Positions 188 through 61,662 of a stretch of DNA of 64,000 nucleotides are shown here, in pieces. The stretch lies in assembly GCA_965248995.1 (NCBI GenBank), contig CBDFKY010000006.1, positions 101,729 through 165,728 of the forward strand, written 5' to 3'. Each line of letters starts with the position of its first letter. The first letter of the stretch is position 1. Both the position numbers and the translations under genes were made by a program. The DNA comes from Rickettsiales bacterium (GTDB lineage Bacteria > Pseudomonadota > Alphaproteobacteria > Rickettsiales > UBA998). Under the pieces are notes generated by a model. It worked only from the letters and a program-made list of their open reading frames with translations, had not been told where the DNA came from and made no database searches.

Positions 188-304
188 TATAGTCATTCCG
201 ATTAAAAACCGTACGGTTTTAATCGGATAAAATGACTATAACCATATAATTTATAGTGTTTTTAACCGAAAATTTTCGTACGAAAATTATTCGGAAACAC
301 TATA
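188..304. repeat. 117-bp tandem double-hairpin repeat, copy 1
   Basis: Matches 18737-18853 with 6 differences. Two modules, each with a perfect 10-bp outer stem (TATAGTCATT/AATGACTATA; TATAGTGTTT/AAACACTATA), a ~13-bp inner stem and a central CGTACG. Confidence 0.9.
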
Positions 305-19748: not shown

Positions 19749-22700
19749 ATGGCGACGCTCCCTTCTGCCCTCTTTCGTCAGCGACTGCTGGTATCCTGCG
19801 CTATGCTGGCGTGCGGTGCGGGAATCGCTATGCCTGCCCCTGCTGCTGCCGCCAACATGGCCGCGCAGCTTCGGAAGGATTTCGCCCGTCTCACCTTGAA
19901 CGGAGCGGACGGCGCGAAAATGAAACCCTCCGCGAACGGGCGGGACGTGATCATCGAGTTCAATCAGCCGGTGCCGGTGACCATCGACGGGATCACGCAG
20001 AATCTGAAACCCTATATCCTTAATGCCCGCCAGTCGCCCGACCAGCGACAGGTGATCCTCACCATGCAGGACGATTATCCGATCCGCAGTTTCATCAGCG
20101 GCACTACGAGCGGGGTGGATATCCTGTTCAAGGGAAGGCCGAAGCCCGAGCGCGTGGTGACGGACAAGACACCCCTGCCTTCCACAACGCATCTTAACCC
20201 GTCAAAAGGGGTCGACGTCAAAGACTCGATACTGACTACATACAAAGGCGGGAAAAACAGCGTTTTCTCCACCCAACCATCCAATCCGGCGCTTAAGGTG
20301 GCAGAAACATCCGCTGTTCCTTCCGTGCCGCTGCTGACGAAGCAGCCGGTACAAACCCCATCTTCCGCGCCACGGCCAGAGCCAAAAGCGCCGAAGGTCA
20401 TCACCACCAAAGCTCCGGGTGTGGAAAAAGGGAGCCGGAAAAAAGAGTCGATACTGCAGACGAAGCCGGTTGCAAAGGCAGAGCCAAAACAGACCATTAC
20501 CGCGCTCGGCAAGCAGATTGCCGCCATTCCCATTCCCGTGAAGAAGCCCGAAATGCAAGAATCTGTCAAGACGGCGCAGGCTGCGCCGCCAGTTCTGCCT
20601 GAAAACACACCGATTCCGGCACCAGCCGCACCCAGGGCAAATCCGTTGCCGGAAGCGATTCCGGTGGTTCCGGAACCCACTTTGTCCACCAGGGAGGAAA
20701 AGGAACAGGCGGCGCAAGCGCGGATCAGCGCCCTGATGAACAGCCATCCGCTGGTGGTGGGATTGAAAGGCGGGCCGGTCGACGCGCAGCTTTTCTTTCC
20801 GTTCAACGAGCGTACCGCGGCGGCGAGCTTTACGCTCGGCCATAATCTCTATGTCGTATTCAACAGCAAGCGGCAGATCGATATTAAAAACCTGACGACT
20901 ATTCTGCCGCGCTATTTGACCTCCGTTCAGCAGCTGCCTTCCGAGAAGGGCACAGTGCTGCGTTTCGTGACGGACGGGGAGGTGTACACCACCGCCAACC
21001 TGACCGGCAACGGCTATGAATGGGTGGTCGACGCGTCCCGCCGGCCGAAAATTCCCAAGATCACCACCCTTCCGAACGTGGTGAGTGCCCCGCCGCTACC
21101 CGCCCACGTGGAGCTGGAAATGGTGCAGATGGGCGACGTCATCACGGTAATTGACTCGGTGAGCGGTGACGACGTGGACGTGGTGCCGGGATATGAGGGC
21201 AATCACGGCGTGTTCCCGGAGCGTATCCTGCCGGACGCGACGGTGCTGCGTACCGGGCAGGGGATGGCGTATCTGCCGACGCGCCCGGATGTGCGCCTGA
21301 TGAAATTGCGCAGCGGTTTACGCCTGAGCGTACCCGGCGGGCTCGCCGTTTCTAAAAATCTGGCCGCGCTGCCCGCCGATGCGGCGCTGGCGGATCAGCA
21401 GCAGAGCTTCACGTTTTATCCCTATAGCCAGTGGAAGGCGGCGGATAATACCGATTTTTATGCGAAAGAGCGTGAGCTGTTCGCGGATATCAGCACGGCG
21501 GACAGTAAGAAAGCGCCGCTGCTGCGGATGAAGCTGGCGGAACTGTATCTCTCGGAAGGGATGCATATGGAAGCGCTCGGCGTGCTGGACATCATCCATC
21601 AGGATACGCCGGATGTGTATGACGACTACCAGCTCTCGGCCTTGGCCGGAGCGGCGAATTTCATGATCGGGCGCTTCGATGCCGCAGCTCAGAATTTCAC
21701 CCACCCGACGGTGAAGGACGAGGAAGAAGCGAAAATGTGGCAGCGGATGCTGGAGGTGCTGGACGGGGCGGGGAAAAATTTCGATTACTTTACGTATAAC
21801 CAGCATTACATCCGGTTCTATCCGCCGGATATGCGCCGCCGCATCGCCCTGCTCGCCGCGGATAACGCCCTCGCGCAGGGGAAAATCGAGGCGGTGCAGA
21901 AGATTTTCGCAGGCCTGGCACAGGATAAGCTGACGGATTCGCTGGAAGGGTACAAACAGTATATGTTGGGGCGGATTTATGCCGAGGCCGGAAAATTCGA
22001 CAAGGCGGAAGAGAAACTGAAACCGCTGATCGACAATCCCGAGGACCGCTTTCTGCGGGCCCGCGCCGCATTCACGCTGGCGACCTCGAAATATAAAGCG
22101 GGGTTGATCGACCGGCCGGCGCTGATCGCCGCGCTGGAGCCACTGCGCTATGTCTGGCGGGGGGATGCGTTCGAGCTGAACCTGCTCAACCTGCTGGGTG
22201 AACTGTATGCCAATAACGGACAGTATCTGGATGCCCTGCGCGCCTGGAACGATGCAGTGACGTACTACCCGGATACCGCCGTGGCGCGTGACGCCAGCGG
22301 TAGGATGGCGGCGGCGTTCGTCTCCCTGTTTAATGAGGGGAAGGCAAATAATCTCACCCCGCTCAGCGCGCTGGCGCTGTATTACGAGTTCCGGGACTTG
22401 ACGCCGCTCGGCCGCCCGGGGGACGTGATGATCCAGCACCTTGCCGACCGGCTGGCAGGCGTCGACCTGCTCGACCGCGCCGCCTCGCTGCTGCAGCATC
22501 AGGTGACCTACCGGCTGGAGAAAGAAGAGCGCAGCCGCGTCGGCGCGCGTCTGGCGCTGATCTACCTGCTCAACCGTGAGCCGGACAAGACGCTGGAGAC
22601 GCTGGAGTTGACCGGCTACGGCGACAATGGCGCGGACCTCAACCGTAAACGCAACCATCTGGCGGCGCTCGCCCAGGCCAAGCTCGGCAACTGGCAGCGG

Positions 22701-43049: not shown

Positions 43050-43126
43050 CGGGGTGTAGCGCAGCCTGGTAGCGCGTCCGTCTGGGGGGCGGGAGGTCGT
43101 CGGTTCAAGTCCGGTCACCCCGACCA
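43050..43126 (+). tRNA. tRNA-Pro (anticodon GGG)
   Basis: 77-nt cloverleaf. Acceptor CGGGGTG/CACCCCG, D-arm GCGC-AGCCTGGTA-GCGC, anticodon loop CTGGGGG, T-loop TTCAAGT, encoded CCA. Confidence 0.9.
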
Positions 43127-43203
43127 TCCTACGCCCTGCGGGCTTCGGATGGTTCGCCGCCGCGATGGCGAAGCCATACGGAACCGCATCTTGGGCGTAG
43201 GAT
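43126..43203. repeat. long imperfect hairpin immediately 3' of tRNA-Pro
   Basis: Perfect 11-bp outer arms ATCCTACGCCC/GGGCGTAGGAT (43126-43136 / 43193-43203). Inner pairs TGCGG/CCGCA and GGCTTCG/CGAAGCC. Confidence 0.6.
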
Positions 43204-43239
43204 GCGCTACGAAGCCGGAGCGTAGCGGAGGAGGGCTTT

Positions 43240-43470
43240 GTGTATTACGTCTATCTTATAAAGAGCCTCAGCCACCCCGATCAAAAATACATCGGGATTA
43301 CAGAGGATTTGAAGAAACGCTATGTCGACCACAACAAGGGCTTCTCCAAACATACCGCAAAATATACGCCTTGGGAAATCGTGACCTATCACGCCTTCAA
43401 AGATAAATACAAAGCATATGAATTTGAAACTTATCTCAAAACAGGGGGATTATATACTTTGCAGGACTAA
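43240..43470 (+). CDS. GIY-YIG nuclease family protein, C-terminus replaced by IS insertion
   Basis: GTG start. YYVYLIKSLSHPDQKYIGITEDLKKRYVDHNKG...PWEIV is a GIY-YIG core. From 43445 the frame runs into the IS inverted repeat. Confidence 0.75.
   Translation: MYYVYLIKSLSHPDQKYIGITEDLKKRYVDHNKGFSKHTAKYTPWEIVTYHAFKDKYKAYEFETYLKTGGLYTLQD
43437..43444. repeat. 8-bp target-site duplication CAAAACAG (left)
   Basis: Identical to 45524-45531, directly outside the inverted repeats. Confidence 0.8.
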
Positions 43471-59727: not shown

Positions 59728-61662
59728 ATGGAAAAAGCGCAGTTGAAACTGGTCATCGTCGGGCATGTGGATCATGGGAAATCCACCCTGATCGGCCGCC
59801 TCATCCATGATACCGGCAGTCTGGTGCAGGGGAAATACGAACAGATCACGGCGAGTTGCGCCCGTCGCGGTGTCCCGTTCGAGTGGTCGTTCCTGATGGA
59901 CGCGCTGCAGGCCGAACGGGCGCAGGGTATCACGATCGACATGACGCAGATCTGGCTGCGTACGCCCGTGGTGGATTACGTGATCATCGACGCGCCGGGC
60001 CACCATGAATTCCTGAAGAACATGATGACCGGCGCGGCGGAGAGCGACGCCGCCATTCTGATCGTCGACGCGGTGGAAGGGATGCGCGAGCAGACGCGCC
60101 GCCATGCGTACCTTCTGCACCTGCTCGGTGTTTCGCAAGTGGTGGTCGTGGTCAATAAGATGGACGCCGTGGTCTATGATGAAAAGCGTTATCAGGCGCT
60201 CGCGGATGACTGCCGGGCGTATTTGAAGGAACTGGGAATCACGCCGGTTCAGGTGATTCCCGTCTCGGCATACAGGGGGGAAATGCTGGCTTCCCGCCCG
60301 GCGGACGTACTTACCTGGTATAAGGGACCCACCTTGACGGAGGCGCTTTCGCATTTGCAGCCTTATGCGCATTCGGTTTCCTCGGCCCTGCGCCTGCCGG
60401 TGCAGGACGTCTATAAATTCGATGCGCGGCGGATCATCGCGGGTACGCTTGAGAGCGGAACGCTGAAAGTCGGGGACGAGGTGCTTATTTCTCCCACGAA
60501 TTACACCGGCCGCATCGCCAGCATCGAGTGCTGGCCGGAAATTAGCGGCGCATCCTGTCATCCTGCGCATAGCGAAGGATCTCATCCGGCGGCACGGGAT
60601 TCTTCGGCTGCGCCTCAGAATGACGAGGCCGTCGCAGGCCAGGCGGTGGGCATCACGCTGGAGGACCAGCGCTACATCGAGCGGGGGCATGTCATCAGCC
60701 ATGTGACGAACGCGCCGATTCTCAGTAACCAGTTTTTCACCCGCCTGTTCTGGATGCATCCCGAACCGCTGGAAGAAGGGGCGATGTATGAACTGCGTAT
60801 CACCACGGCGACGTACCGCGTGGAAGCGAAGCATATCGCCTACGTCGTGGATACCGATACCTGTGAGCGGATGCCGGGCAGGCCGGTAGAGCGCCATCAG
60901 GTGGCGGAAATCCTCTGGCAGGTGCGCGGTCTGGCCGTGCTCGACGAACACGCCGTTCTTCCCGCCACGGGGCGCTGCGTCGTCCTGAGGGACGACCGTA
61001 TCTGCGGCGGCGGCATCATCCATATGCAGGGGCTGTCCAACCAGCGGGCGGCAAGGGTGGCGGTGAAATCCGCCAACGTGCTGACCGAGGACATGCGCCT
61101 GACGAAAGACGAGCGGGCGAGGGCGAACGGCCACACCGGCGGGATCCTCTGGTTTACCGGGCTCTCCGGTTCCGGCAAATCCACGCTCGCCAAGGAACTG
61201 CAGCAGCGGCTGTTCGCTCTGGGTTATCAGGTATATGTGCTGGACGGCGACAATATCCGGCAGGGGCTGAACGCCGATCTCGGTTTCACGCCTGCGGACC
61301 GTTCGGAAAACATCCGCCGTGTCGGAGAGGTGGCGGCCCTGTTCGCCGATGCCGGGATGATCGTCATTTCCGCTTTCATCTCGCCTTATCGCGCCGATCG
61401 CCACCGGGCCCGCGCCTCTGCGCCGGAACTGTTCCACACGATCCATATTAAAGCGGGCGTCGACGCCTGCGAGGCGCGTGACGTGAAAGGCCTGTACGGG
61501 CGGGCCCGCCGCGGTGAGATCACCGAATTCACCGGTATTTCCGCACCCTACGAAACACCGGACAACCCGGAACTGGTGATCGATACCGAAGCGCTGTCCA
61601 TCGATCGATGCGTGGAATCCCTGCTCGCCTACGTGGTGAAGCAGTTTGGACAGGCTTCATGA
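59728..61662 (+). CDS. cysNC: bifunctional sulfate adenylyltransferase subunit 1 / adenylylsulfate kinase (CysN-CysC fusion, NodQ-like)
   Basis: ATG at 59728. GTPase motifs GHVDHGKST, DAPGH and NKMD. The C-terminal APS-kinase has P-loop GLSGSGKST. An extra ~25 aa lies in domain II. Confidence 0.93.
   Translation: MEKAQLKLVIVGHVDHGKSTLIGRLIHDTGSLVQGKYEQITASCARRGVPFEWSFLMDALQAERAQGITIDMTQIWLRTPVVDYVIIDAPGHHEFLKNMMTGAAESDAAILIVDAVEGMREQTRRHAYLLHLLGVSQVVVVVNKMDAVVYDEKRYQALADDCRAYLKELGITPVQVIPVSAYRGEMLASRPADVLTWYKGPTLTEALSHLQPYAHSVSSALRLPVQDVYKFDARRIIAGTLESGTLKVGDEVLISPTNYTGRIASIECWPEISGASCHPAHSEGSHPAARDSSAAPQNDEAVAGQAVGITLEDQRYIERGHVISHVTNAPILSNQFFTRLFWMHPEPLEEGAMYELRITTATYRVEAKHIAYVVDTDTCERMPGRPVERHQVAEILWQVRGLAVLDEHAVLPATGRCVVLRDDRICGGGIIHMQGLSNQRAARVAVKSANVLTEDMRLTKDERARANGHTGGILWFTGLSGSGKSTLAKELQQRLFALGYQVYVLDGDNIRQGLNADLGFTPADRSENIRRVGEVAALFADAGMIVISAFISPYRADRHRARASAPELFHTIHIKAGVDACEARDVKGLYGRARRGEITEFTGISAPYETPDNPELVIDTEALSIDRCVESLLAYVVKQFGQAS
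60557..60624. repeat. 68-bp imperfect palindrome inserted in frame within cysN
   Basis: Left arm GTCATCCTGCGCATAGCGAAGGATCTC. The reverse complement of the right arm is GTCATTCTGAGGCGCAGCCGAAGAATCCC. Encodes CHPAHSEGSHPAARDSSAAPQND, which has no counterpart in the E. coli CysN segment as I recall it. Confidence 0.7.

Follow-up and report, generated by a model that had tools for sequence, protein, structure and literature searches.

An in-frame palindrome in a loop of a CysN/CysC fusion protein as a probable member of a hairpin family associated with Ssn-type GIY-YIG genes

How can a palindromic DNA element settle inside the gene of an essential-pathway enzyme without closing its reading frame, and which agent might have brought it there? 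This question is raised by a stretch of 64,000 nucleotides, called here the window, from a Rickettsiales bacterium (GenBank assembly GCA_965248995.1, contig CBDFKY010000006.1, positions 101,729 to 165,728 of the forward strand), in which an imperfect palindrome of 69 nt lies within a fused cysN/cysC gene, cysNC. The alphaproteobacterial genome concerned, labelled G000, measures 2.4 Mb, has a G+C content of 55% and is 90% complete; C6, C14, C19 and C22 are contigs of it. The original prediction, made from the letters of the window, had described the palindrome as an in-frame loop insertion that behaves like the palindromic elements of Rickettsia. The analysis reported below indicates that the segment is probably a non-autonomous member of a family of hairpin repeats associated with Ssn-type GIY-YIG genes, built in the manner of a miniature inverted-repeat transposable element (MITE), and that it constitutes an ancient and presumably tolerated in-frame insert of cysNC.

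The host gene encodes a bifunctional protein in which the large subunit of sulfate adenylyltransferase is fused to adenosine 5'-phosphosulfate (APS) kinase, with Pfam matches to GTP_EFTU (6.5e-46), a split GTP_EFTU_D2, GTP-eEF1A_C and APS_kinase (3.2e-62). A cysD-like gene is found at another place in G000, so that the pathway partner of CysNC is present. The palindrome reads TGTCATCCTGCGCATAGCGAAGGATC-TCATCCGGCGGCACGG-GATTCTTCGGCTGCGCCTCAGAATGAC and corresponds to residues 277-299 of the 644-residue protein, counted from the ATG at 59728; the peptide predicted at this place includes ...CHPAHSEGSHPAAR.... The orthologues of CysNC were aligned in two sets, 20 from related genomes and 32 from a wider collection (52-69% identity). 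About 10 residues separate the IASIE and AVAGQ blocks in the 32 orthologues of the second set, against 33 in G000, and the surplus coincides to the codon with the 23-codon palindrome. The closest orthologue from a genome (L057, 69% identical) has no insert and reads GWPAAGDAAASAGQ.

The structural consequences were considered with an AlphaFold model based on an alignment of 33 sequences, in which residue numbers exceed those of the protein by one and the mean predicted local distance difference test score (pLDDT) is 82.5. This score falls below 50 at model residues 274-297, a stretch devoid of modelled secondary structure that separates two strands of the domain II barrel (260-270 and 301-303), while the ten-residue blocks flanking the insert reach 88-89. 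The insert is thus predicted to form a disordered surface loop between two confident beta strands of CysN domain II. On all these points the original prediction is borne out: the sequences, the coordinates and the translation of the arms were correct, the exact insert running from 60556 to 60624; the excess of length that it had noticed between the two conserved blocks is real, and the alignment resolves it into a clean insertion of 23 residues; the frame that it had described as open is intact, the insert being in phase 0; and the surface loop that it had supposed corresponds to what is modelled between the domain II strands.

An ordinary extension of the CysN loop, specific to this lineage and self-complementary by chance, could in principle produce the same picture. 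The length of this loop does vary elsewhere, as in L024, which has a long AT-rich insert that is not palindromic, and the fold of the element as DNA (-13 kcal/mol, z = -1.34) is thermodynamically unremarkable, 25 of 200 shuffled sequences being equally stable. The significance of the palindrome derives from its membership of a family and not from its folding energy. On this ground the accidental origin is refuted, and its probability can be considered as negligible: the cysN copy matches a five-seed nhmmer profile of the family with an E value of 1.3e-19, about 25 other copies occupy unrelated contexts of G000, identical arms are present in many phyla, and the extra residues fit the repeat to the codon.

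With the same profile and a cut-off of E <= 0.01, about 26 distinct loci of the family were detected in G000, the cysN copy being the sole one in the window. A search for the 25-nt arm allowing at most 3 mismatches also gave 26 occurrences, and none when the pattern was written backwards. The copies, of 58-75 nt, follow the consensus TGTCATCCTGAGCGnAGCGAAGGATCTC - loop - GAGATCCTTCGCTnCGCTCAGGATGACA, and a BLAST comparison of the cysN element with its own genome returned full-length relatives on other contigs, 73-80% identical. Copies are found both between and within genes. Several of them lie in long open frames of host genes that are backed by Pfam and by comparison with solved structures. 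In UbiE, the copy is in frame and lengthens the methyltransferase by 24 residues between its LPF and FD motifs. In GltB, an internal copy encodes 22 residues of the linker that joins the amidotransferase domain to the central one, for a net gain of only about 9-15 residues over its relatives, this linker being variable and the boundaries of the copy not clean. A third copy, in an AcrB-type RND pump (C6:380397), is probably also in frame and occupies the loop between transmembrane segments 6 and 7, for which relatives, at most 38% identical, have loops of similar length, so that it may represent an insertion or a replacement. A fourth, in a YgfZ-like protein (C6:387759), matches the profile weakly (E = 1.5e-4). 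The remaining copies are mostly intergenic or at gene ends, one of them immediately before the start codon of dxr.

Altogether, about 3-5 of the 26 copies are apparently translated in frame within conserved genes, and at most 6 of the 26 are in genes at all. Bacterial genomes are usually about 90% coding, and random placement would have put far more copies into genes, which suggests that selection removes most genic insertions. Two of the three frames of the element are free of stop codons (frame 1, CHPERSEGS; frame 2, VILSEAKDL) and the third contains TGA. The copies of CysN, UbiE and the one preceding gltB belong to a sub-type whose right arm is longer by two bases and in which frame 1 is open throughout. 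The copies that survive in genes occupy loops or linkers, consist of a whole number of codons and are entered in frame 1 or frame 2. The characteristic peptides produced by these repeats, CHPERSEGS, VILSEAKDL, ..PQDD and ..FRMT, should serve as a warning in annotation. A search of five element loci against Rfam at a permissive threshold returned only chance matches below threshold (miRNA families and an Aggregatibacter sRNA), so that they correspond to no described RNA family, and a literature search for the arm sequence or the typical peptides gave a single irrelevant match to a primer.

Each arm, GTCATCCTGAGCGNAGCGAAGGATC, is itself a hairpin. When bases are counted over 382 distinct arms, positions 4-8 are the mirror image of 24-20, and 11-12 that of 17-16. 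The first base, T0, is T in 82% of the arms; conservation amounts to at least 98% at each of G1, T2 and C3, and to about 99% at each of the mismatched bases G9-A10 and G18-A19. Covariation was examined in an alignment of 137 arms, one per source, and compared with 500 shuffles. All 7 proposed pairs display double compensatory changes and 98.9% of the cells are paired; none of the shuffles reaches the observed values, and pairing falls to 18-50% when the partner is slid by 1-3 columns. The plan of the arm consists accordingly of a near-invariant 5' TGTC head, a 5-bp stem, tandem G.A/A.G mismatches and a GC-closed GNA triloop, presumably the classic stable d(GCGNAGC) mini-hairpin. The variable base, N14, agrees with its partner in the opposite arm. 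These hairpins are short, and their conserved 5' head, which is not palindromic, confers an orientation on them.

Such an architecture recalls a system described in Neisseria. SsnA of Neisseria meningitidis, a single-domain GIY-YIG protein of 94 residues, binds the hairpin named NTS, CGTCATTCCCGCGMAVGCGGGAATCYRG, only as single-stranded DNA (ssDNA) and in one orientation, and cuts just upstream of it (Chenal et al., Nat Commun 2025, PMC11893778). Ssn homologues of many phyla are flanked by related motifs, termed SRM, and the authors likened the NTS-ssnA-NTS arrangement to an insertion sequence (PMC11893778). In G000, a GIY-YIG gene of about 95 codons (C19:22075-22359; Pfam E = 4.8e-15) stands between two full copies of the present family, at C19:21988-22055 and 22378-22447, and GIY-YIG is the only assignment given to its product by Pfam.

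This arrangement is not limited to G000. A small GIY-YIG gene adjoins the arm in 3 of 80 arm loci examined, and in L215 (Chloroflexota) and L141 (Cyclobacteriaceae) it is found exactly between both arms. The reverse survey considered 80 loci of ssn homologues from many phyla, whose proteins are 55-70% identical to the C19 protein, and accepted an arm with at most 5 mismatches in 25 and at most 700 bp away. An arm was present at 45 of these loci, against a chance expectation whose order of magnitude is estimated at 1e-5 per locus, and at 22 of the 80 each side of the gene has an arm no more than 200 bp away. The typical layout comprises a plus-strand arm about 40 bp upstream of ssn and a minus-strand arm just downstream; the canonical NTS arm of Neisseria type was seen at only 1 of the 80 loci. 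The arms are associated with ssn genes, and flank these single-domain GIY-YIG genes often on both sides. A second ssn-like gene of G000, on C22, encodes a paralogue 45-47% identical to the C19 protein and is followed by GCCGTCATTCCCGCGAAGGCGGGAATGACGG, a hairpin identical to the NTS core, an indirect sign that the C19 protein may belong to the Ssn clade (cd10448).

The surroundings of these genes call for some additional observations. Two tandem truncated arms, TTGTCATCCTGAGCATAGAAG and TTGTCATCCTGAACGTAGAAG, precede at C19:21946-21987 the full copy upstream of ssn, and similar tandem arrays of arms, with a period of about 34-70 bp, flank the ssn homologues of L258, L275, L300 and L314. The ssn frame of C19, opened by the ATG at 22075, crosses the element at 22378-22447 and continues into gltB, whose catalytic Cys is codon 142 of this frame. 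From ssn codon 86 to this Cys the frame offers neither ATG nor GTG nor TTG, and only a CTG at codon 133. GltB is therefore apparently made as an Ssn-element-GltB precursor, or else its translation begins at an unusual start; in the former case, glutamate synthase might carry the nuclease as an N-terminal extension that can be removed. G025, a genome from another family, also has an ssn-like gene in one open frame directly upstream of gltB, for a total of 1609 residues. In the window region 43050-43440, another kind of small GIY-YIG gene (YYVYLIKS...) is present about 115 bp downstream of a tRNA-Pro (window 43050-43126); its frameshifted paralogue in the region C14:91700-92400 also comes after a tRNA-like sequence and is directly followed by a 117-bp double-hairpin repeat, TATAGTCATTCCG..., which occurs as well at window positions 188-304.

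When did the element enter cysNC? The closest CysNC in a collection of 5.8 billion proteins, P0002, is 78% identical, and no relative closer than this was found in that collection. Its gene, on contig L358, contains in the same loop an element of 117 nt (TGTCATCTTGAGCGACGCGAAGGATC...GCACGGGG...GGATCCTTCGTTTCACTCAGGATGAC), enlarged by an additional right arm, which ends at the codon boundary used in G000, two codons before A-[VI]-A-G-Q, and which has the loop motif GCACGGG in common with the G000 element. The two proteins are sisters with 100/99 support in a tree from which the insert residues were removed. Since a homologous insert stands at the same boundary in P0002, the insertion in cysNC is old. 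A single insertion in the common ancestor of both lines, kept in frame in each, would be the simplest reading of these sequences. The original prediction had accepted that a similar segment in close orthologues devoid of palindromic DNA would speak against it; P0002 is the only relative with a long segment, and it has the same element in its DNA. P0002 contains in addition, towards the end of its GTPase (G) domain, another in-frame element, whose arms are of a related type (TATCATTTTGAGCGGAGCGAAAAATC...) and whose peptide reads HFERSEKS..PSAAPQDD. Neither of the two P0002 elements is present in P0003-P0006, which are 69-76% identical.

Table 1. Coordinates of the palindromic element, its parts, its host gene and the related gene. 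Positions are those of the window, unless preceded by a contig name.
Feature	Position	Strand	Description
Host gene cysN/cysC	59728..61662	+	644 aa, intact; Pfam matches, 52-78% identity to CysN/CysC proteins
Palindromic element	60556..60624	+	69 nt, 23 codons in phase 0, predicted translation CHPAHSEGSHPAARDSSAAPQND, CysN domain II
Left arm GTCATCCTGCGCATAGCGAAGGATC	60557..60581	+	SRM-like hairpin, top strand; differs from the family consensus at 2 positions
Copy-specific loop TCATCCGGCGGCACGG	60582..60597	+	Loops vary among copies; GCACGGG common with the orthologous L358 insert
Right arm, bottom strand reads GTCATTCTGAGGCGCAGCCGAAGAATC	60598..60624	-	SRM-like hairpin, sub-type with 2 extra bases
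P0002 gene on L358	L358:1107-3182		JGI contig Ga0654462_0014131

The conservation of the insert could also mean that the loop, or the hairpin formed in the mRNA or the DNA, has been co-opted by CysNC, for instance for contact with CysD, for translation pausing or for local recombination, and is kept by selection. The insert has preserved its open frame in two lineages whose proteins are different at 22% of the positions, both arms are still near the family consensus, and a different perfect palindrome is in frame in the same loop of an alphaproteobacterium, L063. This hypothesis is nonetheless very unlikely. The insert is predicted to be disordered, its peptides in G000 and P0002, of 23 and 39 residues, differ greatly and resemble each other only at the ends that the arms encode, all the other orthologues are devoid of it, and recurrent insertion is also what a permissive site would be expected to show. 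The insert of CysNC would rather be neutral, merely tolerated and not useful. The L063 palindrome itself (locus 1501-3381 of L063, the same as L026; JAFLCR010000080.1, Alphaproteobacteria bacterium UWPOB_ALPHA1) is GC-rich, reads CCAACCCCCACCCTGCCCTCCCCCTC-TGA-GGGGGAGGGCAGGGTGGGGGTTGG in frame and encodes TLPSPSEGEGRVGVG; being different from that of G000 and placed in the same loop, it indicates that this site of CysN is permissive. The same loop has in this way taken a different palindrome in another lineage.

At the scale of the bacterial domain, the exact 25-nt arm is found in at least 120 genome stretches from many phyla, among them Acidobacteriota, Chloroflexota, Bacteroidota, Clostridia, Patescibacteria, Planctomycetota and Nitrospirota, and the loops between arms vary across genomes from 11 to about 100 nt. 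At closer range, the distribution is patchy. In 41 related genomes, surveyed with at most 3 mismatches and with the reversed arm as control (zero occurrences), 10 contain arms, from 1 to 77 each, and 31 have none. The counts are 26 in G000, 31 in G011, 14 in G012, 48 in G024 and 77 in G038, the five others having 1-4. G024 and G038 belong to the same order as G000, and G024 mostly carries a covarying form of the arm, GTCATGCTG...AAGCATC. Ssn homologues were detected at E <= 1e-5 in 22 of the 41 genomes.

These data can be assembled in the following scenario. The full unit would comprise an arm, an ssn gene of about 95 codons and an inverted arm; its short form would consist only of two inverted arms around a short loop. 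An Ssn-type nuclease, for which the product of C19:22075-22359 is the candidate in G000, would recognise the arms and nick exposed single strands beside them, after which host repair or copy-choice would spread the arm pairs. The arms would in this manner be mobilised by the nuclease. One short form would have entered cysNC in the common ancestor of G000 and its nearest known relative, at a position encoding the turn that joins two beta strands of domain II. Its survival there would be due to a length that can be divided by three and to the frame entered (TGT CAT CCT ...), which is free of stop codons in this sub-type, while selection would have removed most of the insertions made elsewhere in genes.

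The repeats could also be real and yet owe their spread to something else than an Ssn nuclease. They would then be structural or regulatory hairpins (terminators, or marks for recombination or transformation), propagated by an unseen transposase, by template switching at hairpins or by gene conversion, and the nuclease would merely use them as recognition sites. Several results weigh in this direction and against the scenario proposed above. The arm-rich G024 and G038, with 48 and 77 arms and a completeness of 98-100%, have no Ssn homologue at the threshold used, which shows that repeats persist without a resident nuclease, and co-occurrence of arms and ssn at the level of genomes is imperfect among the 41 relatives. 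No direct repeat indicative of a target-site duplication was seen in the inspected flanks of the G000 copies. These copies are diverged among themselves, the cysN copy is old, and there is no sign of current activity. To our knowledge, no strand-transfer activity has been described for GIY-YIG nucleases. The only demonstrated function of SsnA is the control of transformation, by restriction of transforming ssDNA, and not transposition (PMC11893778).

Other reservations concern the individual components. The Ssn-like protein of C19 gave two partial matches below threshold in NCBIfam and none in the PDB, and its frame lacks a stop codon of its own, so that it may not be a normal gene. The search string published for SRM, HGTCWYN(0-2)YYVSBRHN(0-5)WNVSBRGN(0-2)RNCYNB (PMC11893778), is matched on neither strand by the consensus arm or by the cysN copy. 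For the insert itself, no relative of high identity offers an empty site for comparison, and the reading of the 69 nt as 23 residues of CysNC is deduced from the open frame alone. Against a spread independent of the nuclease stand the precise location of the nuclease gene between inverted arms in several phyla, the dissemination of this nuclease at 55-70% identity across phyla with the same type of arm, and the want of any other gene consistently adjacent or of a Y1/RAYT transposase in G000. This alternative is on balance unlikely, even if less so than a co-option by CysNC, and the association with an Ssn-type nuclease is retained as the preferred explanation.

The element can finally be compared with the repeats already described. 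Its closest counterparts are the NTS and SRM of the Ssn system. As in that system, the arms of G000 are short multi-copy hairpins with an orienting 5' (C/T)GTCAT head, they flank a single-domain GIY-YIG gene of about 95 residues in a repeat-ssn-repeat order, and they are patchy across phyla and common in symbiont-like alphaproteobacteria. They differ from NTS by their stem, ATCCT..AGGAT with G.A/A.G mismatches and a GNA triloop, against ATTCCCGC..GCGGGAAT, and by their grouping in inverted pairs that form a palindrome of 58-75 nt. The genic fraction differs as well: the few copies translated in frame in conserved genes of G000 contrast with an NTS of which only 2% are inside genes, coding copies being not discussed (PMC11893778). 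The SRM search string does match the Neisseria NTS and about 10 CGTCATTCCCGC copies in G000, which contains in all about 35-40 canonical NTS-like hairpins (CGTCATTCCCGCGAAGGCGGGAATCCAG), frequently arranged in inverted pairs with a spacing of about 45 bp. The window itself contains one of these hairpins, at 86-108 (GTCATTCCAGCGGAAGCTGGAAT), with compensatory changes of the stem relative to the Neisseria consensus. The original prediction had suspected a kinship between a hairpin at 86-110 and the cysN palindrome, and was right in kind, this hairpin belonging to a sister family. Judged from its sequence, the cysN element would represent a second type of arm, with the head and plan of the Ssn repeats and a different stem, hence a variant of the SRM/NTS repeats, and this identity explains the GTCAT head seen in both hairpins. 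As the search string is not matched, the element is classified as a variant of SRM kind and not as a proven member, and this form of the arm should be added to future SRM searches.

The hairpins known as repetitive extragenic palindromic (REP) sequences, and the doublets called REPIN, resemble the present family by their frequent inverted pairing, their tens of dispersed copies and the existence of one small gene flanked by the repeats, as well as by a likely single-strand DNA lifestyle. The partner here is a GIY-YIG nuclease and not the Y1 (HUH) transposase of the REP-associated RAYT systems, no match to PF01797 being found in the 90% of G000 available, and REPs are extragenic by definition, whereas the present copies are partly intragenic and translated. 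With MITEs, the family has inverted terminal arms in common; it differs from the classical ones by the fact that its only coding relative carries a GIY-YIG nuclease in the place of a transposase.

The resemblance proposed at the outset, to the Rickettsia palindromic elements (RPE), holds for the behaviour and not for the length. RPE are palindromic repeats of about 150 bp, distributed in ten families and found in frame in unrelated housekeeping genes of Rickettsia (Ogata et al. 2000; review PMC10969869). Here too, a palindromic repeat is in frame in alphaproteobacterial housekeeping genes, with the frame kept in CysNC, UbiE and GltB, and is apparently read as an extra peptide compatible with the fold. 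The cysN element, at 69 nt, and the other copies are about half as long, and the nearest named neighbours of the host are uncultured 'Rickettsiales/Alphaproteobacteria bacterium' metagenome-assembled genomes and not Rickettsia. A further difference is that a candidate partner gene, encoding a GIY-YIG protein, is visible for the element of G000. No paper joining 'Rickettsia palindromic' with a GIY-YIG partner was found in the searchable literature, and we know of no agent identified behind the protein-coding palindromes of Rickettsia, for the making or moving of which a candidate is hereby supplied. It can be tentatively imagined, with more doubt than confidence, that the arm-ssn-arm unit is a minimal nuclease-driven mobile DNA, and that gene-less arm pairs are a general source of protein-coding palindromes in the loops of essential enzymes across bacteria. 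At the present locus, a hairpin pair of Ssn type appears to sit in an enzyme of an essential pathway as a translated loop and to have persisted there through a substantial divergence of the protein. It joins in this way the in-protein palindromes reported in Rickettsia in 2000 with the Ssn nucleases and their repeats, described in 2025 as almost always extragenic.

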